This document shows positions 4,181-57,274 of a DNA stretch of 64,000 nt, piece after piece. The position numbers were made by a program, and so were the translations under genes. Each line of letters starts with the position of its first letter. The stretch's first letter is position 1. The DNA is from Thermodesulfovibrionales bacterium (lineage in GTDB: Bacteria > Nitrospirota > Thermodesulfovibrionia > Thermodesulfovibrionales > SM23-35): positions 3,823 through 67,822 of the forward strand of contig JASEEX010000002.1 in the NCBI GenBank assembly GCA_030019415.1, in the 5' to 3' direction. The notes below the pieces were generated by a model. It was given only the letters and a program-made list of their open reading frames with translations, was not told the DNA's origin and ran no database searches.

Positions 4181-5536
4181 TTAAATTTTGGTTACGGATG
4201 GAATTATGATTTTTACCTTGGTCTCCCCGCCCTGAGTGCTTTCGATCTCCATCTCCCAGCCGTGTGCCTTTACGAGATGTTTGACAATTGCAAGGCCGAG
4301 GCCTGTACCACCAAGCTCTCTTGAACGTGCTCTATCGACCCTGTAAAATCTCTCACCAAGGCGGGAGAGGTGTTTCCTGGGGATACCGATTCCCGTGTCC
4401 TCTACTGATATAACGAAGACGTTTTTCTCTTCTTCACTTTTAATTTTTAACTTTTCTCTTTTCACTTTTACTGTTACTCCTCCTTCTTCTGTAAACTTAA
4501 TTCCATTATCCACAAGATTGAGGAGTATCTGAATCAAGCGATCCCTGTCTGCTTTGGTCTCTTGTGCGTTGGGAGATATCTCTTTTTTCAAGTAAAGCCC
4601 CTTGTTTTTTGCCTTCCCTCTTAGGGTTGCAAATACCGTATCAACAACATTGTCAAGATTCACATCCATTTTTTGTATTTTTATATCACCAAGCTCTATT
4701 CTTGAGAGCGTAAGTAAATCACTTACAAGGGAATTCATGCGCTCACTGTGGGTTCTTATCGTCTCAAGGAACTTGCGTGCATTTTCTTTATCATCAATCG
4801 CTCCTTCGAGAAGTGTTTCAGCAAAACCTTTTATTGCGGTAATAGGTGTCTTTATTTCATGAGAGACATTTGCTACAAAATCCTTTCTCATATCCTCAAG
4901 TTGTTTTAGCCCTGTAATATCATAAAATGTTAAAACTACCCCTGATACTTCCCCTTTTACTGAAAAAGGTGCTGCAGTGGCCACCAGATAAAGTTCTCTC
5001 GGGTGGGTAACTTCGATCTCTAAGGATATCGTCTCTTCGGTTTTAACCACCCTATCAATTACCTCCATAAGTTCTGCCTTCCTCAGGGTCTCCATCAGTG
5101 TCCTGCCTTCGATATTGGATTCGACACCGAAAAAGTTCTTGATAGCTGAATTACTTAAGAGTATCCTGCCTTTGGTATCTGTCAACATTAATCCGTCAGA
5201 CATGTTCATGAGGATAGCCTCTATCTTATATTTCTCCTCCTCACCCTCTTTGAGCCTCGTCTCGAAATTCTGAGCCAGATCATTGATATTCTTTGCAAGT
5301 TCTCCAATTGCGCCTTTTCCCTTCAAGAAAAGACTTTTTCTGAAATCTCCTGATGTTATCGAACCTGAGAATTCTGCTATCTCACTTATAGCCTTTTCTA
5401 CCCGCTTGATCTCAAGAAGGCTAATAACGATGGTAGCTAAAAGTGCAGACAGTAAATAATATTCGATACCTGCCAGCAAAAAAGGAGAAAATATCAGATA
5501 GGCTAAAAGAATACTTTTTAATAATCCAGCCTTCAC
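4181..5536 (-). CDS. phoR: Phosphate-regulon sensor histidine kinase (PhoR-like; HAMP-PAS-HisKA-HATPase)
   Basis: H-box FVANVSHEIKTPITAI, N box LLNLVDNGIKFT, G boxes DTGIGIP and GGTGLGLAIVK. Two N-terminal TM segments. The start overlaps the phoB stop. Confidence 0.8.
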   Translation of the reverse strand: MKAGLLKSILLAYLIFSPFLLAGIEYYLLSALLATIVISLLEIKRVEKAISEIAEFSGSITSGDFRKSLFLKGKGAIGELAKNINDLAQNFETRLKEGEEEKYKIEAILMNMSDGLMLTDTKGRILLSNSAIKNFFGVESNIEGRTLMETLRKAELMEVIDRVVKTEETISLEIEVTHPRELYLVATAAPFSVKGEVSGVVLTFYDITGLKQLEDMRKDFVANVSHEIKTPITAIKGFAETLLEGAIDDKENARKFLETIRTHSERMNSLVSDLLTLSRIELGDIKIQKMDVNLDNVVDTVFATLRGKAKNKGLYLKKEISPNAQETKADRDRLIQILLNLVDNGIKFTEEGGVTVKVKREKLKIKSEEEKNVFVISVEDTGIGIPRKHLSRLGERFYRVDRARSRELGGTGLGLAIVKHLVKAHGWEMEIESTQGGETKVKIIIPSVTKI

Positions 5537-7498: not shown

Positions 7499-7540
7499 GG
7501 ATTATATAGATATAATCTTTAGTATATTTTAAGCCATTAC

Positions 7541-11307: not shown

Positions 11308-11321
11308 TCCTTTTCTATTTC

Positions 11322-11554: not shown

Positions 11555-11557
11555 AAA

Positions 11558-11821: not shown

Positions 11822-11834
11822 AAATGCCTCCTTC

Positions 11835-14800: not shown

Positions 14801-15206
14801 TTAAAGCTTTCTCCACAGCCAGAGAAAAGGTTCTGTTATCTGTGATGTTTGCTATGCCCTTGAGAACTATAGGTAAAACCTTTTTTGTTTTCCTGAAATT
14901 TCTTACTTTTTCCCTTAACTGGACATCAAGAGTTTTAAGGTATTCTTCAATATGGCCAGAATCATCCCAGAGCAAATGTTTGACAACAGCAGATGCATGA
15001 CTTTTGCCGGTTCCATAAGCTCCCTGAATTAGGATTGATTTTCGTTCAGTAGACTGGCTTGCTTCAAGGCTTCCCACTGTGGTTTTTAGAATATTGTTAA
15101 ACTTCTCATTAGGTATGAACCGCATCCAGTAGGTTTTATGTTCATTTGTGAGGTCATAATAGGATTCAAAGTAATCATGCAACCCAATGATTTCAGAATA
15201 TCTCAT
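11835..15206 (-). CDS. brxC: BrxC/PglY-like large P-loop ATPase
   Basis: 1123 aa with Walker A ILIQGAYGTGKSH and Walker B HLMIFWDEFS. Its size and position (after brxP, before pglZ) fit BREX BrxC. Confidence 0.65.
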   Translation of the reverse strand: MRYSEIIGLHDYFESYYDLTNEHKTYWMRFIPNEKFNNILKTTVGSLEASQSTERKSILIQGAYGTGKSHASAVVKHLLWDDSGHIEEYLKTLDVQLREKVRNFRKTKKVLPIVLKGIANITDNRTFSLAVEKALKDTLKANNVEVQTESDFEKMVAQIKDNPLHIDWNQIIKSNQELRMYVNSPSDLVNRLKNRDITILKVLESIINKKGGYFIYSKIDKWLLEIAKELSDKGIANHLMIFWDEFSAVLQHSNRNEFLSPLQDMAELSKNGNIFLYLISHRTPHQAGFADEEVKKVFDRFHFKDYSMEPITTYHIISAAIQKKDEIKWNDLKDRFFSANPQLNELLERISGNEGVSAKNNVKNLFPIHPYAAYLATFIARNLGSTERSIFSFLNDKDKGFLNFLNNETDDKSPVISADYLWDYFIEEFEKDNSDKFLPILEKFKLHIKDIESLGKQYIAVFKGTLLLNALYRMVSVGEAQQSLVLPSVGNIQSLFIGTFCEPDVDRALGYFDKKEIIRKTPDELYLVSFSIPPVKEIEAEKQKALLEYEDITKVLEFNPASKTNLTSLITNGILRTTEVNFYWVGEKEHILRSKLSKGFRKTYSLHLAIFLQKDDAEASVIKNTIKQLAKEEDSKHSIFIFIDKPFGKDRYNRFITFYAESVVARNHNFNDDAIANQDFAKKVVDDWINSIRSGYVTVILNGEEKLELMSKIGNLINEQISPRIFRYGLENLQKARENQNVWTYKMAQKSIEIFLFANSRDDISSKTSRGQESYLRCILKDKRGNNYVVEENLEIKETADKEHPLVKISGEVEGKINDLQDQPNFNLGDRLRFLSELPYGIYSNMIHMALMGYVLRKYIGKLYEAGTGRPITQSMMKDKTTELFRCWQEGISSSKLEVRLGTLEEKELVETLGDIFSFDNVNSLNDLRWEIRKLVKDMGLPIWSVKYLDVKDGVKNAVDEIFILTKNVDSEIGYDDVKRILEAVKNNKLDLELTLKKDKIQQGFIQFLQYIDSVSIFYSDIGEIIDYLYKNMQEEVAQWEIDKVESKVKDWWIKKQTLPPETGIPGEIKEKPPVNDVDKIIYKEQVKERLMSYSGDLKPILLKILDAKPDLAYLIDKYLNSQ

Positions 15207-17606
15207 CTACGCCTCCAGACTTTCAGGATAAATCTCTTCGCTTAATAATTCCAATACATCAATATGATTTAAATCTTCTCTTAAATGGATATTATCGAGA
15301 CCTTTGATCAGGTCTGCCTTCAATATGCCATTTTTGTTTTCCTGAAGATAGCGAAGGATATTCTCAAGCTTTCCCTTTGATATGCCAAAAAGACGGTATG
15401 GCCCTTCTTTCTGTTCATCCCTGTAAAATTCAGAAATGGTCAAGTCACGCCTATTTTTACTTTCAGCATATCTGTAAAGAGAATATGCGATTGCTATGGG
15501 ATGGACATCGTCAGTTCCGAGTTTTTGGATGTTACGGGTATTCCCTCGTTTTTCTATGATTCCCAATTTCAATTCATTGCCCAATGGTGTTGTTTCCAGC
15601 ATATTTGCTAAAGCATCTATGCCGCTTGAAATTGTATTCTTGCTACCTGAAAAACCACGGTTCAGTCCTAACTGCACAAGTTCACCTGTTGAATATGAAT
15701 TGCCGAAATCAACATCTGATATGTACCATTTTATTAGACTGGAATTATGGCTAAGATTTATCCAGATTATTTCCCAGGATAATCGTTCATTCTTAAAAAA
15801 TACTGTTTTAAGCTTATGACCCAATCTTGTTATTTTGTTTTCTTTTGTTTTAAGCACATCGGCATCTCTTAGCCATACTATTACTGCATAAGCTTGAATA
15901 GGCCCAAGATTCTTGGTAGAAAACCATTTGTCTGGATCAGTTAAAAAAGAAAATAACCATTCCCTTCTAAGTCCAAATGTCTTATATTTTGTAAAACCTC
16001 CTGATTTGTTTGCCATATTTTTACCCCCCCCCAGAATCATCTTATCAGCCTGTGCCTTAAAACATCCTTTCTCTGCATGGTATAAACAATTTCCACAATG
16101 GTTACATAACGTTGTATCTATCTTTACATAAGGACTAACTTTTAAGGCACCTGTCGGGCATTCTACCTCACATGTGCCACAGTGAATACAATAGGTGGCT
16201 TTGTATAGAATTCTTTCGATCTTATTTTTAAAAATAATGTCATTATTTATTTTCCCTATTTTTACTAAAATCTTATCATCTTTATTCTTTATTACTTCGA
16301 AGTCAAAAATTTTATCTCTTACCTTTATTTCCCCATATTTCTTGTCATCTTCTTTTTTAAAATATATTTCCCCTATCGTCCTTGACCATTCGATAAAATT
16401 TTCATTGGGGTTTGAAATAAGTGCTTCTAAACGTTGGTCAGACGAGAAAAAATCAATTTTGGTTCCGTTAGAGTTTATTCCACCCCATCCCGGCTTTTTT
16501 TTCCATGCCCCCTCGCAAATATATTCCAAAGCTTTATTTTTTTCTGGAACTATCATATCAACATATTCCTTAAGAATTCCCAAGTATTTAGAAGAAACCT
16601 CTGAGTATTTGTAGTTTATAATGTACTCAGACCACTCGGACCCAAAAGGACAGATGCCGCAACCAATCCTGCTCAATCCATATCTGTAAGCCTCATTTAT
16701 TTTTAATTCACGATAGAATGTATACAAAAATACCTCTGCAGAGTTCCAATATCTTATTACCTCAGCATTGATTTGATTTGTATGTTTTGTCCCCTTTGAA
16801 ATTCTAGTGTAACTTTCCCTTTTTGCACTTTCTTCAGCTCTCACTCCCTCAAATGTTAAGATCTTTGGCTGCTTCTTCCCATTAAACATGCAATTAATCA
16901 GACTCATATAGGGTGCTGTCTTATGAACTGTACAACACCACCTGTGTATTCTGCTCGGTGGCCCAAATATCCGCCATGTTTTCTCAGATGGCAATCGGCC
17001 CTTTGCGGTTTCAAACCGTAAACCGGCATAAAGTTTTTGGTAATATGCTTTAGTTTCTTCTACATTTTCATAAGTAGAAGGGAGTTCCATATCTGTGTCT
17101 GTAAAAACTACAATATATTCATCCGGCGGGATTATTCTGCTTACTATATCGAGAACTACCTGCGAGTCTTTACCTCCACTAAATGAAACCGCGAAACAAT
17201 TTACCTTGTTCCTACCCCTTTTATACGACTTGTAAGTATGCTCAACAAAATCCATCGCCTCATTTTCCAATACACGAAGAGCTTCCTGATTCTTTCTGAC
17301 CATTAAGTCTACATTAATAGGTTCAATGATTAAATCTTTCCCGTTCTCCGTAATGTTTATTTGTGGGGACTCAAAAATATTTCCACCTTTAGCCTCTGCA
17401 ACCCATTCCCCCCTGCAGTAATATCTCCTTCCATTTGCCCATAATAATGGTTTTTTTGTTCTCGGACAGTTCCAGAATTTATTGAATTTCAGAAGGTCCA
17501 ACTCCTCAAAAAAAACAGGGCGTGGAAGAATTAAATTATTAATCTCGGTGGGTTTATCTGTTAATATCACACCGTTGATTTCCTTATCCCATATTACTTT
17601 ATACAT
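15207..17606 (-). CDS. brxP: BrxP-like PAPS-reductase-domain protein fused to a 2x[4Fe-4S] ferredoxin module
   Basis: 799 aa with PP-loop AVSFSGGKDSQVV and further PAPS-reductase-family sequence (FEGVRAEES, RWCCTVHK). The ferredoxin clusters are YCIHCGTCEVECPTGAL and CNHCGNCLYHAEKGC. The roughly 125-aa N-terminal region and roughly 280-aa C-terminal region show no motif I recognise. Confidence 0.7.
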   Translation of the reverse strand: MYKVIWDKEINGVILTDKPTEINNLILPRPVFFEELDLLKFNKFWNCPRTKKPLLWANGRRYYCRGEWVAEAKGGNIFESPQINITENGKDLIIEPINVDLMVRKNQEALRVLENEAMDFVEHTYKSYKRGRNKVNCFAVSFSGGKDSQVVLDIVSRIIPPDEYIVVFTDTDMELPSTYENVEETKAYYQKLYAGLRFETAKGRLPSEKTWRIFGPPSRIHRWCCTVHKTAPYMSLINCMFNGKKQPKILTFEGVRAEESAKRESYTRISKGTKHTNQINAEVIRYWNSAEVFLYTFYRELKINEAYRYGLSRIGCGICPFGSEWSEYIINYKYSEVSSKYLGILKEYVDMIVPEKNKALEYICEGAWKKKPGWGGINSNGTKIDFFSSDQRLEALISNPNENFIEWSRTIGEIYFKKEDDKKYGEIKVRDKIFDFEVIKNKDDKILVKIGKINNDIIFKNKIERILYKATYCIHCGTCEVECPTGALKVSPYVKIDTTLCNHCGNCLYHAEKGCFKAQADKMILGGGKNMANKSGGFTKYKTFGLRREWLFSFLTDPDKWFSTKNLGPIQAYAVIVWLRDADVLKTKENKITRLGHKLKTVFFKNERLSWEIIWINLSHNSSLIKWYISDVDFGNSYSTGELVQLGLNRGFSGSKNTISSGIDALANMLETTPLGNELKLGIIEKRGNTRNIQKLGTDDVHPIAIAYSLYRYAESKNRRDLTISEFYRDEQKEGPYRLFGISKGKLENILRYLQENKNGILKADLIKGLDNIHLREDLNHIDVLELLSEEIYPESLEA

Positions 17607-17791
17607 TTATGACCTGTCCTATAGATATTAAAGATATTTATAATGTGTGCTTTTCTTTCTCCATCACTGTTCTACTTTCGTTGATGGTTTCGATAGTCTG
17701 AAAGGGCAGGGAAATCCGCTCGACCTCTGTCCTTTTCCCCTGCCAGTATAAGCCAGTTGGAATATTATTGTTCTCTCTCGGCATAGACTCG

Positions 17792-18052
17792 TTACGCTAC
17801 CTGGAGTGTCAGCCCTTCAATTCTCGATGCCCGTAACCTCTCAACTTTTACATAAACTATTTGTTGACCCGCCTCTTTATTAGCTTCAGAGAGTTCAATA
17901 TTTTTCGCTGCAAGTTCTTTATCATATTCAGGAAGTAACACAATCATGGCATTGTCAGGTATCTTTTCTTCTATCTCGGGATGTTCAAGAATATATAATT
18001 CAAACTCTGTAGAAAGCTGCTGGTTTTTTCTGAACATTTCTTCTCTTGTCAT
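17792..18052 (-). CDS. Hypothetical small acidic protein (86 aa), downstream partner of an overlapping gene pair
   Basis: The ORF has an ATGA overlap (18049-18052) with the upstream 104-aa ORF. I recognise no motif. The architecture resembles a toxin-antitoxin pair. Confidence 0.45.
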   Translation of the reverse strand: MTREEMFRKNQQLSTEFELYILEHPEIEEKIPDNAMIVLLPEYDKELAAKNIELSEANKEAGQQIVYVKVERLRASRIEGLTLQVA

Positions 18053-18363
18053 CTCTTTATCCTCCTTAAATATCTCTCTTTATATCTTTCCCAGTTTTCA
18101 TTTATATCAATATCAGCCAACGTTAATGCCTCATTGAGATCTGCTGCTCCCCAAAATATCTTTTCTTTACTGCCATCCGGATTTAATAAGTCTTTGTGAG
18201 CATATCCATGAGCAGTGTCATATCGAACAATAGGCACCCATTTGCCTTCAAATAATGTTTCGTATTGAACTACAAATCCTGTCACTTTGTCCTTTTCGGT
18301 TATATGTTCATGCCGTTTTCTATCAATATCTGATAGCATAAAGACATAGGATTTTTTCATCAC
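18049..18363 (-). CDS. Hypothetical small basic protein (104 aa), upstream partner of an overlapping gene pair
   Basis: The ORF contains the His-rich core RYDTAHGYAHKD. It is coupled to the 86-aa ORF. Function unknown. Confidence 0.45.
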   Translation of the reverse strand: MMKKSYVFMLSDIDRKRHEHITEKDKVTGFVVQYETLFEGKWVPIVRYDTAHGYAHKDLLNPDGSKEKIFWGAADLNEALTLADIDINENWERYKERYLRRIKR

Positions 18364-18387
18364 ATCGTATTGTCCATCATAAGTTAT

Positions 18388-18606
<219 letters not shown>

Positions 18607-18776
18607 CTATATCAAAATACCCGATTTTTCTATAACTGAGAAAATCACAGTCAGAAATTATTATATGCTTTGTGAGATAAATTAGGTCTTTCCTACACCT
18701 ACATCGGCTATGACTTGAAGATTGCCTTTAAGAAGAAAGGATTACCCTCAAACAATTCTTATGAATCTTTGATTTA

Positions 18777-19286: not shown

Positions 19287-19339
19287 AATAAGATATTGTA
19301 GTAGTTACAAAACGGCAGGTCAATCTGTTATATTTTGAT

Positions 19340-20434
19340 ATGCCAAAGGTTCTTGTTGGAATGAGCGGGGGAGTTGATTCCTCTGTCGCAGCATATCTTC
19401 TGAAGGAGAAGGGATATGAGGTGGAAGGTCTCAGCCTTATTCTATGGGAAGAAAGAGGCAGAACTGATTTCAAAACCTGCTGCTCCCTTCAGGCGATTGA
19501 GGAGGCATCAAGAACTGCTCGACATATCGGAGTACCCCATAACATGATGGATGTGCGAGATGATTTTATAGAAAAGGTGATTGAGCCTTTTGTTAGTGCC
19601 TATACCGCAGGCTCAACTCCCAACCCTTGCATATTATGCAATAGATTCATCAAGTTCCCTTTTCTCATTAGGGATGCTGAAAAAAGAGGTGCTGAATATG
19701 TAGCTACCGGACACTATGCAAGAATAGAAAGACAGGATTCAAGGATTCAAGGATTCAAGGGTTCAAGGGAGACTTCAGTATTTTTGAAAAAAGGAATTGA
19801 TCCCAAAAAAGACCAATCCTATGTTCTTTATATCCTGAAACAGGAGGAGCTTAAAAAACTAATCCTTCCCCTCGGTTATTACAGGAAAGATGAAGTCAGG
19901 GAAATTGCAAAAGGACTTAACCTTCCGGCAACAAAGAGGTCTGAGAGCCAGGAGGTATGCTTTATTGAAAACAGAAATTATTTTAAGTTCATTGAAAAAC
20001 TTTCTCCCCTTGCAGGAAAACCAGGTCCTATCATTGGTATGACCGGAAAGGTAATAGGTACACACAAGGGGATTCATGCATATACTGTTGGCCAGAGAAA
20101 AAGGCTGGGTATATCATCTAAAGAACCCTTTTATGTTGTAAAGATTGATACTATTAGAAACACAGTATATGTAGGTACTCAGGAGGCTGCAAAGAAAAGG
20201 GAATTTTTTGTTGAAGACCTGAACTGGATTTTGCTTCCTCCATCTGAAAAATTTAAAGCCTCTGTAAAGGTACGCTCCATGATGAAGGATGAGCCAGCAA
20301 CAATATCTTTACTCGGAGATAAAGTAAGTGTTGTCTATGATAAACCTCAGTGGGCCCCTGCACCTGGCCAGAGTGCCGTTTTCTACGATGGAGACACAGT
20401 AATCGGTGGGGGAGTAATCAAAACAACAGCCTGA
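19340..20434 (+). CDS. mnmA: tRNA 2-thiouridine(34) synthase MnmA
   Basis: PP-loop VGMSGGVDSSVAAYLL, plus NPCILCN, ATGHYAR and KDQSYVLY. It contains an in-frame octamer array. Confidence 0.9.
   Translation: MPKVLVGMSGGVDSSVAAYLLKEKGYEVEGLSLILWEERGRTDFKTCCSLQAIEEASRTARHIGVPHNMMDVRDDFIEKVIEPFVSAYTAGSTPNPCILCNRFIKFPFLIRDAEKRGAEYVATGHYARIERQDSRIQGFKGSRETSVFLKKGIDPKKDQSYVLYILKQEELKKLILPLGYYRKDEVREIAKGLNLPATKRSESQEVCFIENRNYFKFIEKLSPLAGKPGPIIGMTGKVIGTHKGIHAYTVGQRKRLGISSKEPFYVVKIDTIRNTVYVGTQEAAKKREFFVEDLNWILLPPSEKFKASVKVRSMMKDEPATISLLGDKVSVVYDKPQWAPAPGQSAVFYDGDTVIGGGVIKTTA
19735..19766. repeat. Tandem 8-nt array GGATTCAA x4 inside mnmA
   Basis: ggattcaa ggattcaa ggattcaa gggttcaa. It encodes part of RQDSRIQGFKGSRE, between the conserved GHYAR and KDQSY blocks. 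Confidence 0.9.
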
Positions 20435-21311
20435 CTATATTGGGCACTATTTCAACCTTCGCCGGGGTCTTACCAAAATAATCACCATCTATCTGCACAT
20501 GGGCGTTGCCTTTAACCTCTACAGTAGTTGCTTTTACATATTCTACATCCCTGAACCTGAGATGCCTCCCTACTATTATACCGAAGACATACCTGAGGAT
20601 GTCTAAACGTTTTTTACCCTTAAAAAGACAGATATAAAGAAGGGGGTCAGTGAGTTTTGCATCAGGTGTAATCTTGAAATTCCCTCCATATTTGGCTGCT
20701 TTGCTTATAACTGCAGAATATCCGGAATAAGTTCTTCCATCAATATCAAAAATTAATTCACCGGGATTAAATCCAGATAGGGTTTTTATTCCACTGTAAA
20801 TATAAGCACCCTTACCTGAAATTTTTTTGAGTGTCTCACTTATCCTGAAGACTGCCTCACCATCAAAGCCAATGCCTGCCATTAAGCAAAAGTAACGGCT
20901 AACGCGTTCGGAGTTCGACAGAGCCGAACTCCGAACTATTCTACCGAGTGAGACGGTCTTGGGAGCGCTACTCAAGACAACTTCCATTGCATCCTCTACA
21001 ACCTGGGGAACACTGAGTTCTTTAGCAAGCACATTTGTGGTCCCGAGAGGCAGAATCGCCATCGGAATCTCTGACCCTGCAATCCCATTAATCACCTCGT
21101 TGAATGTGCCATCACCACCAGCTGCAATAATCATAGAGGGTGATTCTTTTATCGCCTCCCTTGCAAGACTTTCTGCATCCCCCTTTTGCTCTGTGAAAAG
21201 TACCTCCACTTTATATCCCCTTGACTTCAGGAAATGAGATGCCCTTACTATTTTTTTATCTGATGCCCTTTTTGCTGTGGGATTAAATATGAGAACGATT
21301 AAGGATTTCAT
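20418..21311 (-). CDS. Diacylglycerol-kinase-family lipid kinase (YegS/BmrU-like)
   Basis: Catalytic-domain motifs IIAAGGDGTFNEVINGI and LPLGTTNVLAKEL. The 3' end overlaps the mnmA 3' end (convergent). Confidence 0.75.
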   Translation of the reverse strand: MKSLIVLIFNPTAKRASDKKIVRASHFLKSRGYKVEVLFTEQKGDAESLAREAIKESPSMIIAAGGDGTFNEVINGIAGSEIPMAILPLGTTNVLAKELSVPQVVEDAMEVVLSSAPKTVSLGRIVRSSALSNSERVSRYFCLMAGIGFDGEAVFRISETLKKISGKGAYIYSGIKTLSGFNPGELIFDIDGRTYSGYSAVISKAAKYGGNFKITPDAKLTDPLLYICLFKGKKRLDILRYVFGIIVGRHLRFRDVEYVKATTVEVKGNAHVQIDGDYFGKTPAKVEIVPNIVRLLF

Positions 21312-22113
21312 CTAACGAAACCATACCTTTGCATAGAGAGACTTTTTCTATTATTGCAGGCAACCTTTCAAGGTACTCTATGATGCCTTCGGCATCTATC
21401 CCTTCCTTCACAAAAAATGCCCTTCCTCCGCTTCTACTCCCCTCACTCTTGATGTTGGGTATCCTCAAATATCCGAAGGCCTTAGATGCCACATAGCCTG
21501 TTGTGTAGTAGGGATCATCAGATACACATAATTCAGCTATCACATGCCCACAGGATGAGACCTTTGACGCAAGGACCAGCGCCTCTTTAACAGTCCCAGT
21601 ATTAATACCATGCCTTGAGAGCCTCGATGAAAGCCCCTTCAATGCCGGCTTAGTAATCCCGAGCCGGGATACCCTTATTCCCCTTTCTCTGTCTGGATCG
21701 AGACGATTGCCCTTTTCGGCTGTAATAATGGCCGCACCTCTCATACCGTCTTTTTTGATCAATTCAAAGGCCCTGTCAATAGCCACCTTCGATACCCCTG
21801 ATGATTGAAGTAACCCCCTCGCCATTTTTTTTCCTTCACCCGGCATGGTATTTTTGATTGTGGCTACAGGTAAAGCCGTGATTGTTTTTGGCTCCTGTTT
21901 TATATCCTCGATTGTAATTATGATTTTATCGGCTTTGCCTCTCGGATGGTTTAATGCCCTCTCAATATATTTTTTAACAACCTCCTGAATTTCTGACTTC
22001 TCATAAATACCTTCCGCACCAGAGATATGAATCTCCTTCTGACTGGCGACTGGCGACTGAGGACTGACGGCTGTTTTAGATGCCCTCATCCTTATGCTCC
22101 ATAGATCCTTCAT
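21283..22113 (-). CDS. bioW: 6-carboxyhexanoate-CoA ligase (pimeloyl-CoA synthetase) BioW
   Basis: Collinear with the remembered Bacillus BioW sequence: SIRMRAS, HISGAE, RGIRVSR, KEALVLASKV, AELCVSDDPYYTTGYVA, GGRAFFV. I place the start at MKDLW (22113), which avoids overlap with mqnC. Confidence 0.75.
   Translation of the reverse strand: MKDLWSIRMRASKTAVSPQSPVASQKEIHISGAEGIYEKSEIQEVVKKYIERALNHPRGKADKIIITIEDIKQEPKTITALPVATIKNTMPGEGKKMARGLLQSSGVSKVAIDRAFELIKKDGMRGAAIITAEKGNRLDPDRERGIRVSRLGITKPALKGLSSRLSRHGINTGTVKEALVLASKVSSCGHVIAELCVSDDPYYTTGYVASKAFGYLRIPNIKSEGSRSGGRAFFVKEGIDAEGIIEYLERLPAIIEKVSLCKGMVSLDEILNRSHI
22041..22075. repeat. Tandem 7-nt array (GACTGGC-type, 5 units) inside bioW
   Basis: gactggc gactggc gactgag gactgac ggctgtt. 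On the gene strand it encodes TAVSPQSPVASQ near the N-terminus. Confidence 0.85.
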
Positions 22114-22144
22114 GGTAGCCTTTTTGCCTCTTGTTTGAGGTCCA

Positions 22145-23281
22145 TCAGAAATATTGAATGATTTTATAGTACGTATTCCTCTGTGCCGGTTTAAATTCGG
22201 CATCCCTTATCGCCTTGATGATATCTTCCTTTGAGACCCTGTAACTTACACCCGTTGATGCTATAACATTTTCTTCTATCATTGTGGAACCAAAGTCATT
22301 TGCTCCAAACCTCAGGGCAACCTGTGCAAGCTTAAGCCCCTGTGTAACCCATGATGCCTGGATATTTTTGATATTGTCGAGATAAATCCTTGAGATTGCA
22401 AGCACCCTCAGATACTCAACAGCAGTAGCAGCAAAGAGTTCTGAGTTCTGAGTTCTGAGTTCTGAGTTTTTACTCTGAGCTCTGAGCTCTAAGCTCTTTG
22501 CTAATTCTGTATTACCCGGCTGGAAACTCCAGGGAATAAAGGCTGTAAAACCTCCAGCTTTATCCTGAAGGCCCCTGATAGCATCCAGATGCTTTATGAT
22601 ATCCTCTGCCTTTTCGATGCTCCCGAACATCATTGTTGCCGTCGTCTTCATGCCAAGTTTGTGTGCCTCTTCCATTACCTTAAGCCATCTATCAGATTTA
22701 ATCTTCTTCGGACTTATCACCTCCTTTACCCTATCAGAGAGAATTTCTGCACCTCCGCCCGGAATAGAGTCAAGCCCTGCATCCCTGAGGAGCCCCAATG
22801 TCTCTCTTATTGTAAGGTTCGCCCTGTCTGCCATATAGCAGATCTCAGGAGGGGAGAAACCATGGATATTCATATCAAATCTGCTCTTTATCTCCCTCAG
22901 CAGGTTTATAAAATAGCTAAGGTCGAGCCCGGGATTTAGTCCTCCCTGAATGAGTATCTGTGTGCCTCCTAATTTTATTGTCTCTTCAATCTTTTTGAGG
23001 AGTTCATTTTTCTCCAAGAGATATGCCTCAGGGTCGTCTTCGTCTCTCCAGAAGGCACAGAAGCGGCATCTGTTTATGCAGATATTTGTATAGTTAATAT
23101 TCCTGTCTATTATAAAAGTGACAATTCCTTCAGGATGTAGTCTTTTTCTCGTTTCATCAGCCATCCGGCCGAGTTCAAGCAGATCAGCCTTTTCAAGGAG
23201 CATCAAGCCTTCTTTCTTCGTAAGACGGTCAGTGTTTTTCTTTATTGGTTTGTTTCTCACTTTTAACTCATAACTTTTCAC
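22145..23281 (-). CDS. mqnC: Radical-SAM cyclic dehypoxanthinyl futalosine synthase (MqnC-like)
   Basis: Motifs DRNINYTNICINRCRFCAFWR and GGTQILIQGGLNP in a CofH/MqnC/MqnE-type fold. The MqnC versus MqnE assignment rests on resemblance to remembered Streptomyces sequences. GTG start at 23281. Confidence 0.6.
   Translation of the reverse strand: MKSYELKVRNKPIKKNTDRLTKKEGLMLLEKADLLELGRMADETRKRLHPEGIVTFIIDRNINYTNICINRCRFCAFWRDEDDPEAYLLEKNELLKKIEETIKLGGTQILIQGGLNPGLDLSYFINLLREIKSRFDMNIHGFSPPEICYMADRANLTIRETLGLLRDAGLDSIPGGGAEILSDRVKEVISPKKIKSDRWLKVMEEAHKLGMKTTATMMFGSIEKAEDIIKHLDAIRGLQDKAGGFTAFIPWSFQPGNTELAKSLELRAQSKNSELRTQNSELFAATAVEYLRVLAISRIYLDNIKNIQASWVTQGLKLAQVALRFGANDFGSTMIEENVIASTGVSYRVSKEDIIKAIRDAEFKPAQRNTYYKIIQYF
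22436..22497. repeat. Tandem 7-nt arrays (GAGTTCT x5, then GAGCTCT x3) inside mqnC
   Basis: gagttct x4, gagtttt, tactct, gagctct x2, aagctct. It encodes LELRAQSKNSELRTQNSEL in-frame. Confidence 0.9.
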
Positions 23282-23291
23282 TTTTAACTTG
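23257..23291. repeat. Tandem 7-nt array (TCACTTT/TAACTTT, 5 units) spanning the mqnE stop and mqnC start
   Basis: tcacttt taactca taacttt tcacttt taacttg. It covers the 14-nt mqnE/mqnC overlap (23268-23281). Confidence 0.85.
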
Positions 23292-24368
23292 TCTATAGAA
23301 CGAATCCCTTTCAGTAGGAACCTTCCCTGCCATCCTTATCAGATATATGAACTGCTCCGGTGTCATTGACTCGGCTGAAAGGGCACCTGCAGAATGGGTA
23401 ATCCTCTCTTCAATAACTGTGCCGCTGAGGTCATCTGCTCCAAAAATAAGTGAAAGCTGAGAGATCTTTTCTCCGAGCATAATCCAATAAGCGGTGATAT
23501 GATCGAAGTTATCGAGTACTACCCTACTTACGGAAATGGTCTTCAGGTCATCTATGCCCGATGAGTAAGAGCCCCCTATTTCGTTGCCCTTTGGATGATA
23601 GGAAAGAGGGATGAATGCCTGGAAGCCACCTGTCCTGTCCTGAAGATCCCTTAGTTTAAGTAAATGGTCAACACGGTGTTTATAGTTTTCAATATGTCCG
23701 TAAAGCATCGTTGCATTCGTCTTAATCCCTAACCTGTGTGCTGTCTCCATAACCTCAAGCCACCTCTCCCCGGAAATCTTCTCGGGACATAGTCTACTCC
23801 TTATCTTATCGTCAAATATCTCAGCACCCCCTCCTGGTATTAATTCGAGGCCGTGTCTTTTGAGGGCAAGTAGTGTCTCTCCCAGACTGAGGCAACTTAT
23901 CCTCGACATATAATCTATCTCGACAGCGGTAAATGCCTTTATATGAAGCTCGGGAAAATTCTTCTTTATCATTGAAAGCATATTCAGGTAGTATTCAAAT
24001 GGCCAGTCAGGATGAAGCCCTCCGACTATATGAACCTCCCGATAAGGTGTGAGGCGTGAGACGTCAGACGTGTAACGTGAAGGCTGAAGTTTTTTAATGA
24101 TTTCATCGATTGTTAATTCAAATGCCCCTTCTTCTCCCTTTGAACGGCTGAAGGCACAGAATCTGCACCGGTTAATACAGATGTTTGTTGGATTGATATG
24201 TCTGTTCCTGATAAAGAATACATTTTTGCCATTTTTCTTCTCAGCCACATGTGAGGCGAGGTCTCCAAGGAAAAAGATGTCCTCTATCTCGAATAATTCG
24301 AGTGCCTCATCCTTAGATACCCTCTCGCCAGCCAATACCTTTTCCTTAATTCTTCTGAGCATAAACAA
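23268..24368 (-). CDS. mqnE: Radical-SAM aminodeoxyfutalosine synthase (MqnE-like)
   Basis: Motifs IKEKVLAGERVS, NRHINPTNICINRCRFCAFSR, VHIVGGLHP, FTAVEI, and MLYGHIENYKHRVDHLLKLRDLQDRTGGFQAFIPL. These match my recollection of MqnE. Confidence 0.6.
   Translation of the reverse strand: MFMLRRIKEKVLAGERVSKDEALELFEIEDIFFLGDLASHVAEKKNGKNVFFIRNRHINPTNICINRCRFCAFSRSKGEEGAFELTIDEIIKKLQPSRYTSDVSRLTPYREVHIVGGLHPDWPFEYYLNMLSMIKKNFPELHIKAFTAVEIDYMSRISCLSLGETLLALKRHGLELIPGGGAEIFDDKIRSRLCPEKISGERWLEVMETAHRLGIKTNATMLYGHIENYKHRVDHLLKLRDLQDRTGGFQAFIPLSYHPKGNEIGGSYSSGIDDLKTISVSRVVLDNFDHITAYWIMLGEKISQLSLIFGADDLSGTVIEERITHSAGALSAESMTPEQFIYLIRMAGKVPTERDSFYRQVKSEKL
24049..24083. repeat. Tandem 7-nt array (GTGAGRC-type, 5 units) inside mqnE
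   Basis: gtgaggc gtgagac gtcagac gtgtaac gtgaagg. It encodes PSRYTSDVSRLTP in-frame, just before the conserved VHIVGGLHP block. Confidence 0.85.
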
Positions 24369-30460: not shown

Positions 30461-31900
30461 ATGAACAAACAGGATTCAGGATACAGGATTCAGGATTCAG
30501 GATTAAGGGAGGGGCTGTTTATTATCTTGTTTACTGTTTACTGTCTACTGTTTACTGTCTATTTATCTTCCACACCTGCATATGGTCAGGACAACACCCA
30601 GAAAAAAGATAATCAGAAAATTGTATTAAATCTCGAGCAGTGCATAAAAAAGGCAATTGAGATAAGTCCAGAGATAGGAGAGTCCCGGTATGAGGAAGAG
30701 GTATACAAGTCAAAGAAGCTACAGGCAGATTCAGCGGTCTATCCACAGATAGAAGTCCTTGCCTTGACAGGCCCTTCTCCGAGGGCAAGGGGGGATCAGT
30801 TAGACTCTCCAGATGACTCTACAAGGCCCACCATTAACGGAATCTTTGGTATTGCTGAAGTAACTTTAACTCAGCCTATATATACCTTCGGCAAGATAAG
30901 CAGTTATAAAGAGGCTGCTTTAAGTGGTATAAAAGTAGCAAAGGCAGGTGTAGAGAAAAAGACCTCAGATATTATTTTGAGAACAAAAGAACTCTACTGG
31001 AGCCTCCTCCTTACCAGGGATATTAAAAATCTTGTCCTGGAGATAAAGGACGAATTTGTTACATCCATAGAAAAGGCAGAAAGGCAGCTCGAGGCAGGTT
31101 CTCCATGGGCAGATGAACTGAATCTTTTCAAATTGAGGGCATTCTTAGGCGAGGTTGAGAGGAATCTCAATGAGGCTGAAAAGAGCGAGGCCCTTGCGAA
31201 GAACGCCCTCATGACCAGCCTCGGACTTCCGAAAGGAACAGAGTTTGATATTGCAGAGGCATCTTTATCCCCTGAAGATAAGATGCCTGAAGATATAAAA
31301 AATTACTTAAAAAATGCAACGGAACTGAGACCTGAATTCATCCAGCTCAAGGAGGGCCTGAATGCCAAAAAAGCCCTTCTTGATGCAGAAAAAAGCAATT
31401 TCTATCCTCAGCTTTTTATTGGTTTATCGGGATCTATAGCAGATGCATCAAACAGGAACCGGGTGGAAAACCCCTTTATTTATGACTATTTCAGCCATGT
31501 CTATGGCGCTGCATATCTGGGACTTAAATGGTCTGTTGATTTTGGGATAACACAGGGAAAGGTTAAGGAGGCAGAGGCCGAGTATTATAAATTATTAGAG
31601 AAAAAGAGATTTGCTGATGAGGCAATCCCTCTGCAGGTGAGAAAGGCATATCTTGAATTAGAAGAGGCAAGGAAGAGTATTCCAGAAATGGAGAAGGCTT
31701 ACAAAAATGCAAGAAAATGGCTCGTTGCAGCAATTGCAAACTTCGACCTTGGCATTGGTGAGGCAAAGGAAATAGCTGATGCTGTAACGGCCTATGCCCA
31801 GATGAAGGTAAATTATCTCCGCACTGTGTACAACCATAGAATGTCCTTTGCAAATTTATCTTATGCAACAGGTATAGATATTAAAGAAGTAAAGTCGTAG
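30461..31900 (+). CDS. TolC-family outer-membrane protein
   Basis: 479 aa with a signal peptide and duplicated OEP-type coiled/beta repeats. It is embedded in the mla operon. AGGAGGG lies before the ATG. Confidence 0.75.
   Translation: MNKQDSGYRIQDSGLREGLFIILFTVYCLLFTVYLSSTPAYGQDNTQKKDNQKIVLNLEQCIKKAIEISPEIGESRYEEEVYKSKKLQADSAVYPQIEVLALTGPSPRARGDQLDSPDDSTRPTINGIFGIAEVTLTQPIYTFGKISSYKEAALSGIKVAKAGVEKKTSDIILRTKELYWSLLLTRDIKNLVLEIKDEFVTSIEKAERQLEAGSPWADELNLFKLRAFLGEVERNLNEAEKSEALAKNALMTSLGLPKGTEFDIAEASLSPEDKMPEDIKNYLKNATELRPEFIQLKEGLNAKKALLDAEKSNFYPQLFIGLSGSIADASNRNRVENPFIYDYFSHVYGAAYLGLKWSVDFGITQGKVKEAEAEYYKLLEKKRFADEAIPLQVRKAYLELEEARKSIPEMEKAYKNARKWLVAAIANFDLGIGEAKEIADAVTAYAQMKVNYLRTVYNHRMSFANLSYATGIDIKEVKS
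30470..30504. repeat. Tandem 7-nt array CAGGATT x5 (N-region of the TolC-like signal peptide)
   Basis: caggatt caggata caggatt caggatt caggatt. It encodes QDSGYRIQDSGL. Confidence 0.9.
30530..30564. repeat. Tandem 7-nt array TTTACTG x5 (H-region of the TolC-like signal peptide)
   Basis: tttactg tttactg tctactg tttactg tctattt. It encodes FTVYCLLFTVYL. Confidence 0.9.
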
Positions 31901-31908: not shown

Positions 31909-32649
31909 ATGAAAGGAATTCGAGATTCAAGATTCATCCTGTATCATTTGTCATTTTTACTGTTTACCCTGTTAGAAAATGCCCTGCGGCTTGCCACGGG
32001 GTTATTCCTTATTTTACGAACACGGGGTTTAATGCCCCGTGTGAGTTTTCTAACGGGGTTTACTGTTTACTGTTTACTGTTTACTGTTCCTATAGCATAT
32101 GCTGGAGAGCCAACATATCAGGTGAAGCAAACCATTGATGGTGTTCTTGACATTTTAAAGAACAAAGAACTAAAAAAGCCTGAAAAGACAAAAGAAAGGA
32201 GGGCATTGATACGCAAAGTTGTTGGAAATAGATTTGATTTTGAGGAGATGTCAAAAAGGTCCCTCGCCCTTCACTGGCGAGCAAGGTCATCAGAGGAAAA
32301 AAGGGAGTTCGTAGCATTATATAGCGATCTTCTTGAGAGATCCTATATTAAAAAGATTGAAGGCTATGAAGATGAACAGATCTTATATACAGGGGAAACT
32401 ATTGATGGTGACTATGCAGTCGTAAAAACCAAAATAATCACTAAAAGGAATGTTGAGATACCAATAGAATATAGACTAATGAAGAAAAATGCCAAATTTG
32501 AAGTATATGATGTGGTAATAGAGGGTGTGAGTCTTGTGAATAATTATAGAAATCAATTCAACAGGATTATTCGAACCAGCTCATATGCGGAACTCCTCAG
32601 GAGGATGAAGAGTAAACAGGAAGAAGAACTTTTTGTGGAAACCCATTAA
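31909..32649 (+). CDS. mlaC: MlaC / Ttg2D-family periplasmic lipid-binding protein
   Basis: The mature part (from YQVKQTIDGVLDIL to VIEGVSLVNNYRNQFNRII) is typical MlaC. The ATG at 31909 has AGGAGG upstream. The 5' 180 nt is made of a MITE plus heptamers, so the true start and leader are uncertain. Confidence 0.7.
   Translation: MKGIRDSRFILYHLSFLLFTLLENALRLATGLFLILRTRGLMPRVSFLTGFTVYCLLFTVPIAYAGEPTYQVKQTIDGVLDILKNKELKKPEKTKERRALIRKVVGNRFDFEEMSKRSLALHWRARSSEEKREFVALYSDLLERSYIKKIEGYEDEQILYTGETIDGDYAVVKTKIITKRNVEIPIEYRLMKKNAKFEVYDVVIEGVSLVNNYRNQFNRIIRTSSYAELLRRMKSKQEEELFVETH
31962..32063. mobile_element. MITE-like element, family A (TTAGAAA-type termini), inside the mlaC 5' region
   Basis: The termini gtttaccctgttagaaaa and ttttctaacggggtttac are inverted repeats. 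An internal hairpin reads acacggggtttaatgccccgtgt. TTTACTG units flank the element (1 on the left, 4 on the right). Confidence 0.75.
32059..32086. repeat. Tandem 7-nt array TTTACTG x4 (H-region of the MlaC signal peptide)
   Basis: tttactg x4 encodes FTVYCLLFTV, followed by PIAYA-GEP. A fifth unit lies at 31956-31962 on the other side of the MITE. Confidence 0.9.
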
Positions 32650-40701: not shown

Positions 40702-41687
40702 GAACCCTTTCCCTCGGCTATTCCCCATGCCCCAATGATACTTTCATATTCTATGCCCTCGTCCGCGGGAAGATCGATACAGAGAATATGGGTTTTAAAG
40801 AGGCCCTGCTAGATGTTGAGACCCTTAATCAGATGGCTTTGCGCTCCGAACTCGATATTACAAAGATTTCATATCATGCCTTCGGCCATCTCCGTGAAGA
40901 CTACTGCCTCCTCCGCTCTGGCAGCGCAATAGGCAGAGGCTGTGGGCCTCTGGTAGTTGCAAAGGAGGACTACACCTTGAAGGACTTAAGGGGGAAAAGG
41001 ATAGCAATCCCTGGCAGGCTTACAACGGCAAACCTGCTTTTACAGCTATTTTCTTCAATCTTCAACCTTCAACCTTCAAATCCCCCTCTACCCCCCTTTA
41101 CCCCGTTAGAAAGCCCTGCCATTTGTGGCGGGGATGATATAGGTAAAATCTCAATTCCTTATAGAAAAGACGGGGCTTTAACCCCGCCTTTTCTAACGGG
41201 GTTTACTAAAGGGGGGCGGGGGGGGATTATTGAAATGCCTTTTAATAAGATCATGGATGCAGTTGTGAAGGGAGATGTGGATGCAGGACTGATAATCCAT
41301 GAAGGAAGATTTACCTATCCTTCTTACGGCTTGAAGAAAGTTTTAGACCTCGGCGAGTGGTGGGAAAATGATACAGGGTTACCTGTACCCCTCGGCGGTG
41401 TACTTGCTAAGAGGAATCTGGGAAAAGACCTGATAAAGAGGGCCGATTCAGTTATAAGAAAGAGTATTGAGTATGCATTAAAACATAGGGATGAGCCAAA
41501 GTTCTATATAAAACAGCACTCCCAGGAACTCGAAGAGGAAGTTATAGAGCAGCATATAACTCTCTATGTGAATGATTATTCTTTAGATATTGGTGAGGAA
41601 GGGTTATCAGCCGTTAGAGAGCTCCTCAGAAAGGCGGAAATGAAAGGGATTATCAAGGGATCGAGAAACTCTCTATGCGTTACGTAA
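40698..41687 (+). CDS. mqnD: 1,4-dihydroxy-6-naphthoate synthase (MqnD), carrying a ~59-codon repeat-derived insertion
   Basis: [57 protein letters not shown] and [13 protein letters not shown] are collinear with the remembered Thermus MqnD. There is an ATGA overlap with the upstream gene. Confidence 0.7.
41053..41080. repeat. Tandem 7-nt array CTTCAAC x4 inside mqnD
   Basis: cttcaat cttcaac cttcaac cttcaaa encodes [10 protein letters not shown]. It directly precedes the intragenic MITE. Confidence 0.9.
41081..41225. mobile_element. MITE-like element, family A, in-frame inside mqnD
   Basis: The core inverted termini are tttaccccgttagaaa (41097-) and tttctaacggggtttac (-41206). They are extended by complementary C-rich and G-rich tracts (ccccctctacccccc / ggggggcggggggg). 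The element has no stop codon in the mqnD frame. Confidence 0.75.
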
Positions 41688-45981: not shown

Positions 45982-45996
45982 TGATTGCTGTTTTTT

Positions 45997-46031
45997 TTAA
46001 CTATCAACTGTTAACTTTTAACTTTTCACTG
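45997..46031. repeat. Intergenic tandem 7-nt array (TTAACTT-type, 5 units) just upstream of tRNA-Arg
   Basis: ttaacta tcaactg ttaactt ttaactt ttcactg. Confidence 0.8.
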
Positions 46032-46038
46032 TCGTAAC

Positions 46039-56726: not shown

Positions 56727-57274
56727 TTCTTCTTTTTTGCCGGTGTTGCCTTTAACTCGTTATATTTTTTTATGATTGTATCAGTAATGTCTATGTCCTT
56801 TTTGGAGTAAAGGACTATGCTCCCGGCCTTCTCTACTATGAGGATGTATCCTTCTTCTTCTCCGATCCTCTCTACTATTTCCCGAATCTCTTTTATGATC
56901 GCATCCGTTAGTTCCAGTTCTTTCTTCTTGACCTCGGCCTGTGAATCCTGGACAAGCCTCTGGTATTCCCTGAGCATTTTTTCGAGTTCTTCCTCTTTGC
57001 TCTTTTTTGCCTCTGCGGAGAGTACGGAGACCTGTTTTTCCAGATCGCTTTTTAGCTTTTCTATGGCCTTGCCCTTCTCATCTATAATTGACTGTTTCGA
57101 TTTTATTAAGGACTCAAGGTCAGACTTAGCCTTCTTTCCAGCATCGGATTCATTTAGAACTTTGTGGAAATCTACACACCCTACCTTTATTGAATCAACC
57201 CCAAAGGAAAAAGTGGCAAGTGACAAGTGAAAAGTGAAAAGTGATAAAATACAAATGATAAGCTTTGTTTTCAT
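56723..57274 (-). CDS. skp: Periplasmic chaperone Skp (OmpH)
   Basis: A signal peptide followed by a long charged coiled-coil region and a Lys-rich tail. It lies between bamA and lpxD, as in many diderms. Confidence 0.75.
   Translation of the reverse strand: MKTKLIICILSLFTFHLSLATFSFGVDSIKVGCVDFHKVLNESDAGKKAKSDLESLIKSKQSIIDEKGKAIEKLKSDLEKQVSVLSAEAKKSKEEELEKMLREYQRLVQDSQAEVKKKELELTDAIIKEIREIVERIGEEEGYILIVEKAGSIVLYSKKDIDITDTIIKKYNELKATPAKKKK
57211..57245. repeat. Tandem 7-nt array (sense-strand TCACTTT-type, 5 units) encoding the Skp signal-peptide core
   Basis: Plus strand: aagtggc aagtgac aagtgaa aagtgaa aagtgat. It encodes LSLFTFHLSLAT. Confidence 0.9.

Follow-up and report, generated by a model that had tools for sequence, protein, structure and literature searches.

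Tandem heptanucleotide-class repeats read in frame within conserved enzymes of a Thermodesulfovibrionales bacterium

A 64,000-nucleotide stretch from a Thermodesulfovibrionales bacterium (assembly GCA_030019415.1, contig JASEEX010000002.1, positions 3,823 to 67,822; hereafter the window) carries short tandem arrays of 7- or 8-nt units inside the open reading frames (ORFs) of four conserved enzymes, MnmA, BioW, MqnC and MqnE. We consider it probable that these arrays are simple repeats of the heptanucleotide class, generated by slippage or unequal exchange, homogenised and filtered by selection, and that they are long-standing passengers of their host genes, neither recent arrivals nor functional modules. 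The window is AT-rich (G+C content of 41.5%) and its nearest public records are metagenome-assembled genomes (MAGs) of Thermodesulfovibrionales / Nitrospirota. The four genes and the arrays found in them and at the mqnE–mqnC junction are as follows:

19340..20434, plus strand: mnmA, tRNA 2-thiouridine(34) synthase, 364 amino acids (aa); NCBIfam NF001138, 411 bits versus a cutoff of 284; PDB 2DER, 9HLN.
19734..19768, plus strand: octamer array in mnmA, three copies of AGGATTCA followed by AGGGTTCA and a partial unit; Tandem Repeats Finder (TRF) period 8, 4.4 copies, 96% matches.
21283..22113, minus strand: bioW, 6-carboxyhexanoate-CoA ligase; NCBIfam NF002360, 263 bits versus a cutoff of 226; PDB 5FLG.
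22041..22075, minus strand: degenerate heptamer array in bioW, GACTGGC GACTGGC GACTGAG GACTGAC GGCTGTT on the plus strand; 22/28 period-7 matches.
22145..23260, minus strand: mqnC, cyclic dehypoxanthinyl futalosine synthase; NCBIfam TIGR03699, 496 bits versus a cutoff of 428.
22436..22497, minus strand: two adjoining heptamer arrays in mqnC, five copies of GAGTTCT then three of GAGCTCT (plus strand); TRF 8-9 copies, 85% matches.
23259..23290, minus strand: heptamer array of 4.6 copies of ACTTTTA (plus strand) across the junction between the mqnE stop and the mqnC start; TRF.
23268..24362, minus strand: mqnE, aminofutalosine synthase; NCBIfam TIGR03700, 488 bits versus a cutoff of 434.55; PDB 6XI9, E 2e-89.
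24049..24083, minus strand: degenerate heptamer array in mqnE, GTGAGGC GTGAGAC GTCAGAC GTGTAAC GTGAAGG on the plus strand; 20/28 period-7 matches.

The arrays within the four genes had been pointed out in an earlier note on this DNA. Their existence at these positions is borne out by the sequence itself, by TRF (minimum score 30) and by a period-specific match count (at least 20/28 matches per 35-nt interval) compared with 30 shuffles. Matches at the array's own period amount to 23/24 in mnmA (period 8) and to 22/28, 47/55 and 20/28 in bioW, mqnC and mqnE, respectively (period 7). At the threshold of 20/28 the window contains ten clusters of period 7 and one of period 8 while the 30 shuffles have none; no cluster of period 5, 6, 9 or 10 was found in the window at this threshold. 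A stricter scan retained six arrays versus zero in shuffles. TRF was discarded as the sole detector: it left the mqnE array, too degenerate, unreported and in bioW returned only 22041-22059 (period 7, 2.7 perfect copies of GACTGGC), the degenerate remainder up to 22075 being visible by eye. A search of the window with Rfam at gathering thresholds identified two tRNAs only and no match at the arrays. The gene identities assigned previously hold as well, all four enzymes exceeding the curated cutoffs of their NCBIfam equivalogs. MnmA aligns end to end with the solved homologues 2DER and 9HLN, BioW with 5FLG and MqnE with 6XI9, to which MqnC was aligned end to end as a paralogue. The public-record form of MqnC (P0001) has 371 aa and is 100% identical. 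The initiation codon of bioW is likely the ATG at 22113 (MKDLWSIRMRAS), as in the annotation of the syntenic locus L081 of a close relative (see below).

The reading frame continues through the array in all four ORFs, as had been proposed. The mnmA array corresponds to codons 132-143 and encodes the peptide QDSRIQGFKGSR. The bioW array, whose coding-strand unit is AGTCNNC, yields VSPQSPVASQ close to the amino-terminus, while the mqnC and mqnE arrays encode KSLELRAQSKNSELRTQNSEL and PSRYTSDVSRLT, respectively. Solved homologues have a gap at each of the four sites: about 9-10 aa in MnmA, 6 aa in BioW (5FLG), about 7 aa in MqnE and 19 aa in MqnC (both versus 6XI9). The addition of about 8-20 residues per array estimated before is corrected to about 6-19 aa relative to solved structures and about 15 aa relative to the shortest close relatives. 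The accompanying statement that the flanking blocks are contiguous in homologues does not stand, short variable loops joining them: the GHYVR to KDQSY distance in Escherichia coli MnmA is 17 residues versus 28 in the window.

A structural model of MnmA, built from a 101-sequence alignment, has a mean predicted local distance difference test (pLDDT) of 86.6 and a predicted template modelling score (pTM) of 0.85. Residues 134-143, encoded by the array, are the sole segment with pLDDT below 50 and form the tip of a hairpin between strands 128-131 and 147-150. Three internal hot spots of length variation were found when the window MnmA was compared with 120 homologues (121 sequences, homologue lengths of 336-433 aa); all three are positioned between beta-strands in the model. 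In MqnC (120 sequences, the window plus 119 homologues) there is a single internal hot spot, delimited by FQPGNTEL and ATAVEYLR, which is the array site; the homologues are 339-388 aa long, a range from which one 658-aa outlier was excluded. An AlphaFold2 model of MqnC from a 39-sequence alignment (mean pLDDT 53.7) was unusable, and only the gap versus 6XI9 was considered. Tolerance of the arrays in surface loops, as suggested earlier, is well supported for MnmA by the disordered hairpin tip of the model and indirectly, through the hot spots of insertions/deletions (indels) and the alignment gaps, for BioW, MqnC and MqnE.

Comparison with relatives was carried out on six syntenic loci taken from independent assemblies (independent relatives GCA_040753955.1, JGI 3300045950, JGI 3300036760, JGI 3300009034 and GCA_049302185.1) and on more than 100 public homologues each of MqnC and of MnmA, with 63-95% identity; species-level records came from NCBI and Logan sources only, as single contigs. 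The independently assembled relatives, at about 65-95% protein identity, have arrays at these sites too, and their ORFs are uninterrupted. Inserts at the hot spots are of two kinds. The first are 7-residue-periodic peptides (RAKSEKQRAQSRGQRA, SRITHHASRI, SQLSTLNSQL, KSQKSEVRSQKSD), as given by a translated heptamer array; the second are peptides of the PPSPPFTKGGSGGI type. Some relatives have no insert at all, for instance at the mnmA site (MnmA VEKKLLK) or at the mqnC site (MqnC P0084). The L081 locus has 93-95% DNA identity to the window over about 21 kb, interrupted by 21 indels. Those within genes coincide with arrays and have net lengths of 24, 33, 36, 15, 30 and 57 nt, each divisible by 3, whereas none of the four larger intergenic or junction indels (134, 28, 25 and 8 nt) is. 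The consistent multiples of 3 are direct evidence that the arrays are read as parts of the ORFs with their frame under selection. The 25-nt indel is that of the array at 23259..23290, which shapes the carboxyl-terminus of MqnE and the amino-terminus of MqnC, both of which differ between genomes.

The history of the mnmA array is the most readily followed. MnmA of L081 (96% protein identity) has exactly three octamer units (24 nt) fewer than the window, and an expansion by three units in the window was initially considered. This was rejected when a further relative, L086 (79% core identity in MnmA), was found to carry a collinear octamer array with the same 22-residue length and the same register, made of another homogenised unit (AGAGTTCA AAAGTTCA AAAGTTCA AAGGTTCA in place of three AGGATTCA and one AGGGTTCA). 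Because the L086 array is collinear and of equal length, the mnmA array is ancestral, and a contraction in L081 is the more parsimonious account of the recent change in copy number. Farther relatives have related heptamers at this site (AGTCAGA, AAAGTCA, AGTTCAG). At the bioW site the AGTC core is common to the lineages and the remaining positions of the unit differ: AGTCNNC in the window and in L082, AAAAGTS in L081, which is 33 nt longer there. In mqnC and mqnE the window and the 95%-identical L081 hold wholly different unit families at each orthologous site; that of L081 mqnE consists of NNGAGTC units and is 15 nt shorter than in the window. The earlier view of these arrays as recent repeat insertions is contradicted by the presence, at all four sites, of arrays with other units in relatives, and by the ancestry of the mnmA array. 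The pattern rather indicates long residence, concerted evolution and frame-preserving changes in length, site and register being kept while units differ because the units are repeatedly homogenised within each array.

The density of period-7 arrays is 2-3 per 10 kb, both in the window and in loci L001, L002, L007 and L081-L085. None was found in the Nitrospirota loci L004, L005, L008, L009, L011, L017 and L039, which include a Thermodesulfovibrio sp. and a Magnetominusculus. In the clade rich in arrays, ORFs make up a fraction of 0.89 of the sequence and contain 34 of the 41 arrays. Loci with heptamer arrays were also found in Planctomycetota, Campylobacterales, Desulfobacterota and other phyla, and there ORFs contain just 5 of 33. 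This clade-wide and mostly intragenic scope had escaped the earlier note, as had the arrays in signal peptides and the two other miniature elements found at the same sites (see below). What is unusual is the location of heptamer arrays inside genes and not heptamer arrays as such. No report of these arrays was found in the top-ranked literature results for Nitrospirota or the Thermodesulfovibrio group combined with repeats, a search whose filter was lenient and which may have passed over existing reports. As a separate observation, dense heptamer arrays are found around mqnC in unrelated phyla (L014, L033, L042, L058, L078; hosts of this type are Desulfaltia, Planctomycetota, a deltaproteobacterium and Campylobacterales), with up to seven arrays per 3.5 kb, almost all of them intergenic.

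The encoded peptides also depart from chance, with a bias towards hydrophilic residues. Of random heptamers with this base composition, about 39% contain a stop codon in some frame. The 7-mers encoded by the stop-free ones have a mean Kyte-Doolittle value of −0.03, with 38% above +0.5, while the 29 internal arrays of the clade have a mean of −0.80 and only 3% above +0.5 (resampling P ~0.002 versus the stop-free null, an approximate value because orthologous arrays are not fully independent). Unit families are shared across the clade: 16 identical pairs were counted versus 1.0 expected, and 95 pairs within one mismatch versus 24 expected, relative to random heptamers to which the stop-free and hydrophilicity filters were not applied and with three of the pairs being orthologous.

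Arrays of the same type are present elsewhere in the window:

4436..4470, minus strand: heptamer array in a PhoR/PnpS-type histidine kinase, five copies of ACTTTTA (plus strand), codons 356-367, peptide KVKREKLKIKSE.
30470..30561, plus strand: arrays of 5.6 copies of CAGGATT and 4.4 copies of TGTTTAC at the amino-terminus of a TolC-like outer-membrane protein (OEP); TRF and translation.
31918..32088, plus strand: amino-terminus of an MlaC/HpnM-like protein, with an ATTCAAG array, a 90-nt miniature inverted-repeat transposable element (MITE; 31968-32057) and an array of 4.4 copies of GTTTACT; TRF and translation.
45995..46035, strand not assigned: intergenic TTAACTG-type heptamer array that ends 3 nt upstream of a tRNA gene (46039-46112).
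57211..57244, minus strand: heptamer array of 4.9 copies of AAGTGAC (plus strand), signal-peptide core LSLFTFHLSLATFS of a Skp-like chaperone; TRF and translation.

The other tRNA gene of the window, coding for tRNA-Sec, is at 32704-32797. The clearly hydrophobic arrays of the window are at the amino-termini of three exported proteins (OEP, MlaC-like, Skp-like), whose canonical signal peptides have no hydrophobic core other than the one encoded by the array (regions 30461-30567, 32032-32100 and 57201-57274). All three genes have a strong Shine-Dalgarno sequence. The OEP CAGGATT array encodes the polar n-region and the TGTTTAC array the hydrophobic core (LFTVYCLLFTVY); both are kept in L081 with point differences. 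The MlaC-like core FTVYCLLFTV is encoded by the GTTTACT array. Arrays that code for such cores are T-rich on the coding strand (TGTTTAC in OEP, GTTTACT in the MlaC-like gene, GTCACTT in the Skp-like gene). The hydropathy of amino-terminal and internal arrays did not differ significantly (Mann-Whitney p = 0.45), and the link with signal peptides is therefore kept as a qualitative pattern. Arrays are not restricted to the cytoplasmic enzymes in which they were first noticed.

Two families of miniature elements co-reside with the arrays. One is a GC-rich hairpin of about 40 nt with the approximate consensus CCCCCC-N3-4-CCCCCC-TTTAGTAAA-GGGGGG-N3-4-GGGGGG, which translates as PPxPPF/LxKGGxGG and is seen in MnmA, MqnE and MqnC of many relatives. 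In the clade loci, 221 kb in total, it occurs 13 times, in four cases within 40 nt of an array versus 3.3% expected (P ~7e-4). The other is MITE-like, 31-119 nt long, with termini CCCGTTAGAA...TTCTAACGGG and at least six copies in the window; in common orientation these have direct GTAAAC / GTAAA[CT] repeats on both flanks. Copies and the insert that combines them are located as follows:

41082-41101 and 41201-41228 (window), 17509-17551 (L081), and also in L082, L083, L085 and L086: GC-rich hairpin.
1852, 31968-32057, 41102-41200, 46955-47073, 52750-52780, 59605-59723 and 63251-63320 (window): MITE.
41053..41228, plus strand: composite insert in MqnD, an array of 3.9 copies of CTTCAAC and a GC-rich hairpin (NPPLPPF...TKGGRGGI) split by the 99-nt MITE 41102-41200.

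MqnD is encoded by ORF 40692-41687 (Pfam PF02621 in two stretches). Its residues 3-122 and 180-325 align with Thermus thermophilus MqnD (2CZL/3A3U), leaving a 57-residue in-frame insert in which array, hairpin and MITE are all nested in frame. The MITE 31968-32057, which L081 lacks, sits within the (GTTTACT)n array of the MlaC-like gene and may provide this gene with another ATG start, at codon 42. In L081 a GC-rich hairpin is nested at the array site of the histidine kinase. The flank motif of the MITE is present also in the hairpin loop and in AGTAAAC arrays. Either targeting or shared permissive sites may account for these co-locations. L081 has in addition 134 nt between aroK and mnmA (position 19288 of the window, which lacks them) with the inverted repeat GTCATTGCGAG...CTCGCAATGAC, probably a further family of miniature elements.

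How the arrays relate to known repeat systems was examined next to the literature. Heptameric repeats are, according to PMC4692102 and PMC4679880 (the latter citing Mrazek et al. 2007), the commonest long simple sequence repeats (LSSRs) in bacteria and are over-represented in non-coding DNA; PMC4679880 attributes to Mrazek et al. 2007 the proposal that heptanucleotide LSSRs originate by polymerase slippage. The arrays described here resemble LSSRs of 5-11 nt units in the dominance of period 7 and in their sporadic, lineage-specific distribution, and they have the head-to-tail organisation of 1-11 nt units and a length far beyond chance (10 + 1 clusters versus 0 in the shuffles) that define the class. 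They differ in the placement of non-triplet units, which in LSSRs are preferentially outside coding regions: published heptamer LSSRs are under-represented in ORFs (GGGNATC of Xanthomonas and Nostoc, PMC4692102; TAACTGA, PMC4679880) whereas those of the clade are mostly in ORFs, many of them in the middle of an enzyme. The arrays are heptanucleotide LSSRs apart from the expected avoidance of coding sequence. The TAACTGA repeats of Beggiatoaceae, Cyanobacteria and Bacteroidetes are likewise heptamer direct repeats with 2-6 copies per set, patchy in distribution, which was read as possible horizontal spread, and occasionally in ORFs at protein termini (PMC4679880); the window has its TTAACTG-type array at 45995. 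They have one dominant unit and most sets are just upstream of start codons, unlike the many families found here mostly in ORFs.

The likeness to the short tandemly repeated repetitive (STRR) sequences of cyanobacteria, drawn in the earlier note, is apt in that period 7 dominates and that tandem heptamers of several unit families are scattered around one genome. Tandem heptanucleotides are found in bioW, mqnC and mqnE; the mnmA array, one of the four, has an 8-nt unit, though relatives hold heptamers there. The unit families (GACTGGC, GAGTTCT, GAGCTCT, GTGAGRC, ACTTTTA, GTTTACT, CAGGATT and others) are different and to our knowledge none equals the units of STRR1-3. The host is not a cyanobacterium, its nearest records being those of Nitrospirota given above, and the arrays are mostly intragenic and translated. 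Because phylum and units differ they are not STRR sensu stricto. Work by Elhai and colleagues in 2008 is reported to have associated other very small dispersed elements with the cyanobacterial STRR, a trait that the present arrays share. Three heptanucleotides are known from Calothrix PCC 7601 (STRR of Mazel et al. 1990, mentioned in PMC4692102). The Rickettsia palindromic elements (RPEs), presented in PMC10969869 as selfish DNA found in frame in protein-coding genes (Ogata et al. 2000, 2002), offer another parallel: repeat-derived peptides are added in frame to unrelated conserved proteins at positions that fold and function allow, as here in ORFs that are read through, at the modelled MnmA hairpin tip and at gaps of the PDB homologues. 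RPEs are palindromic, dispersed, about 100-150 bp long, encode a conserved peptide and belong to obligate intracellular pathogens, whereas the units of the four arrays, 7-8 nt long, are repeated directly and in tandem, encode no conserved peptide and occur in a lineage of free-living anaerobes. Being direct repeats that have no inverted symmetry, they are not RPE-like. Dispersed palindromes are found instead in the MITE and the GC-rich hairpin, and the behaviour of these two in MqnD, and of the MITE in the MlaC-like gene, is RPE-like.

The scenario that we favour combines several steps. Arrays of 7 nt, occasionally 8 nt, would arise and resize by strand slippage or unequal exchange, a step taken from the literature. 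Units within each array are repeatedly homogenised, so that orthologous arrays keep their site and register and drift in unit. Variants that break the gene are purged, the survivors being stop-free, with net lengths that are multiples of 3, located at hairpin tips or in loops between structural elements, and coding for hydrophilic, disordered peptides with 7-aa periodicity; the comparisons above show this filter for frame, position and hydropathy. Hydrophobic arrays survive where useful or harmless, a pattern seen in the signal-peptide cores of the three exported proteins, and the GC-rich hairpin and the MITE accumulate at the same sites. The arrays are best seen as tolerated passengers, slightly deleterious or neutral, devoid of a function of their own. 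Several observations weigh against this scenario. The slippage step is itself inferred, not observed. Arrays are barely depleted from ORFs, which is unexpected for non-triplet repeats that are simply deleterious. Two to three positions of every unit have changed in bioW, mqnC and mqnE in spite of 95%-identical flanks, and such a change of unit across a whole array needs either very fast turnover or replacement from outside. Finally, the recurrence of unit families at non-orthologous sites and in different genomes is poorly explained by purely local slippage.

The last two points are those expected if arrays did not grow locally but were copies of arrays at other loci, or had been seeded by a dedicated mechanism, templated or mobile. 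This could happen through ectopic gene conversion from array to array, or through footprints or target-site duplications of the co-resident miniature elements. The families in question are GTGAGGC (mqnE of the window and mqnC of L081), GTTTACT (30528 and 32058) and CACTTTT/ACTTTTA (4436 and 23259 of the window, bioW of L081). The direct GTAAAC repeats that flank the MITE, a hexamer held by every (AGTAAAC)n unit, and the excess of hairpins adjoining arrays point in the same direction, as does the sporadic presence of heptamer arrays in unrelated phyla, patchy like that of TAACTGA with its possible horizontal spread (PMC4679880). We nevertheless regard copying, the main rival, as unlikely, if worth keeping in mind. 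Even at long divergence, orthologous arrays agree in site and register and have a core of the unit in common, which fits inheritance followed by homogenisation; most units bear no relation to the flank of the MITE and no enzyme candidate was identified; shared permissive sites predict co-location too; and stop-free and hydrophilic filters acting on slippage-prone sequences may yield recurrent units. A bolder version, which we put forward only as a tentative and somewhat doubtful idea, is that an active, sequence-biased process, and not passive polymerase slippage, seeds, copies or homogenises 7-nt arrays in this sub-clade, the arrays serving as landing pads for the GC-rich hairpin and the CCCGTTAGAA MITE. 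If so, translated selfish repeats, nested in three tiers, would keep remodelling conserved enzymes and signal peptides, as a free-living and larger-scale counterpart of the Rickettsia RPEs and a source of new protein segments that include signal-peptide cores and possibly of new start codons.

A function of the arrays in themselves, for example as flexible linkers or 7-residue-periodic segments at the protein level or as signal-peptide cores, appears improbable. Several arrays coincide with or immediately follow a start codon, or lie where two genes meet (30470, 31918, 23259, 57211; compare the start-proximal bias in PMC4679880), three signal peptides owe their sole hydrophobic core to an array, and sites persist over long divergence. 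On the other hand, the units and the peptides that they encode are not conserved among close relatives, each site lacks an insert in some relatives, the MnmA insert is predicted to be disordered, and the hosts are housekeeping enzymes whose solved homologues lack the segment. Phase variation by contingency loci, in which slippage by one or two units toggles a gene, is mediated by heptanucleotide repeats in Haemophilus, and single-unit changes of the present arrays would shift the frame because 7 and 8 are not multiples of 3. We judge it very improbable here. The arrays are in frame in every assembly compared, frame-shifting differences in copy number being absent between the window and L081 (one close genome pair); all are short and most have imperfect units, features that lower slippage rates; and their hosts serve core metabolism and tRNA modification rather than surface, host-interaction or restriction-modification functions. 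Short repeats are prone to mis-assembly and the window derives from a MAG, yet an assembly or sequencing artefact can hardly be the explanation: the arrays have 32-62 nt, below read length, they recur at the same sites with intact frames in assemblies from different samples and pipelines, and more than 100 homologous proteins from NCBI, JGI, ENA and Logan have periodic inserts at the same hot spots. The artefact foreseen earlier as a refuting case is effectively refuted by these independent assemblies. The long-standing, selection-filtered passengers described above remain the reading that we prefer.

Outside phase-variable genes, bacterial coding sequence is expected to be free of simple repeats whose unit is not a triplet. 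The location of about 80% of the heptamer arrays of this lineage inside ORFs, including those of essential enzymes, challenges this textbook expectation and provides a natural experiment on the speed of array turnover, on the protein positions that tolerate insertions and on selection for frame, absence of stops and hydropathy. That junk repeats can supply proteins with new functional segments is suggested by the signal peptides built from arrays and by the MITE of the MlaC-like gene. A specific cause, if found (a missing mismatch-repair function, a particular polymerase), would bear on the old question of why 7 nt is favoured as the register of long simple repeats in bacteria. At a practical level, array segments inflate protein lengths, as in MnmA (344 to 433 aa in close relatives), spurious low-complexity “motifs” such as SRITHHASRI and PPLSKGGxGG arise from repeats, and the alignment of proteins, the annotation of domains and the choice of start codons in MAGs can be led astray by arrays. 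No new molecular system is demonstrated; the lineage offers a clean, richly populated instance of LSSR-type repeats, with miniature elements nested among them, that last within essential genes of a free-living bacterium.

A separate feature of the window is an 11.4-kb island (about 7400-18750) for which L081, syntenic otherwise, has no counterpart. Its products include a BrxL-like Lon protease, a 799-aa PAPS-reductase / 4Fe-4S / DUF4007 protein and two large proteins (782 and 1123 aa) that have no Pfam match; it also has small genes of the DUF5647, DUF7718 and DUF433 types. In appearance this is a defence island related to BREX or Dnd, beside toxin-antitoxin-like genes.

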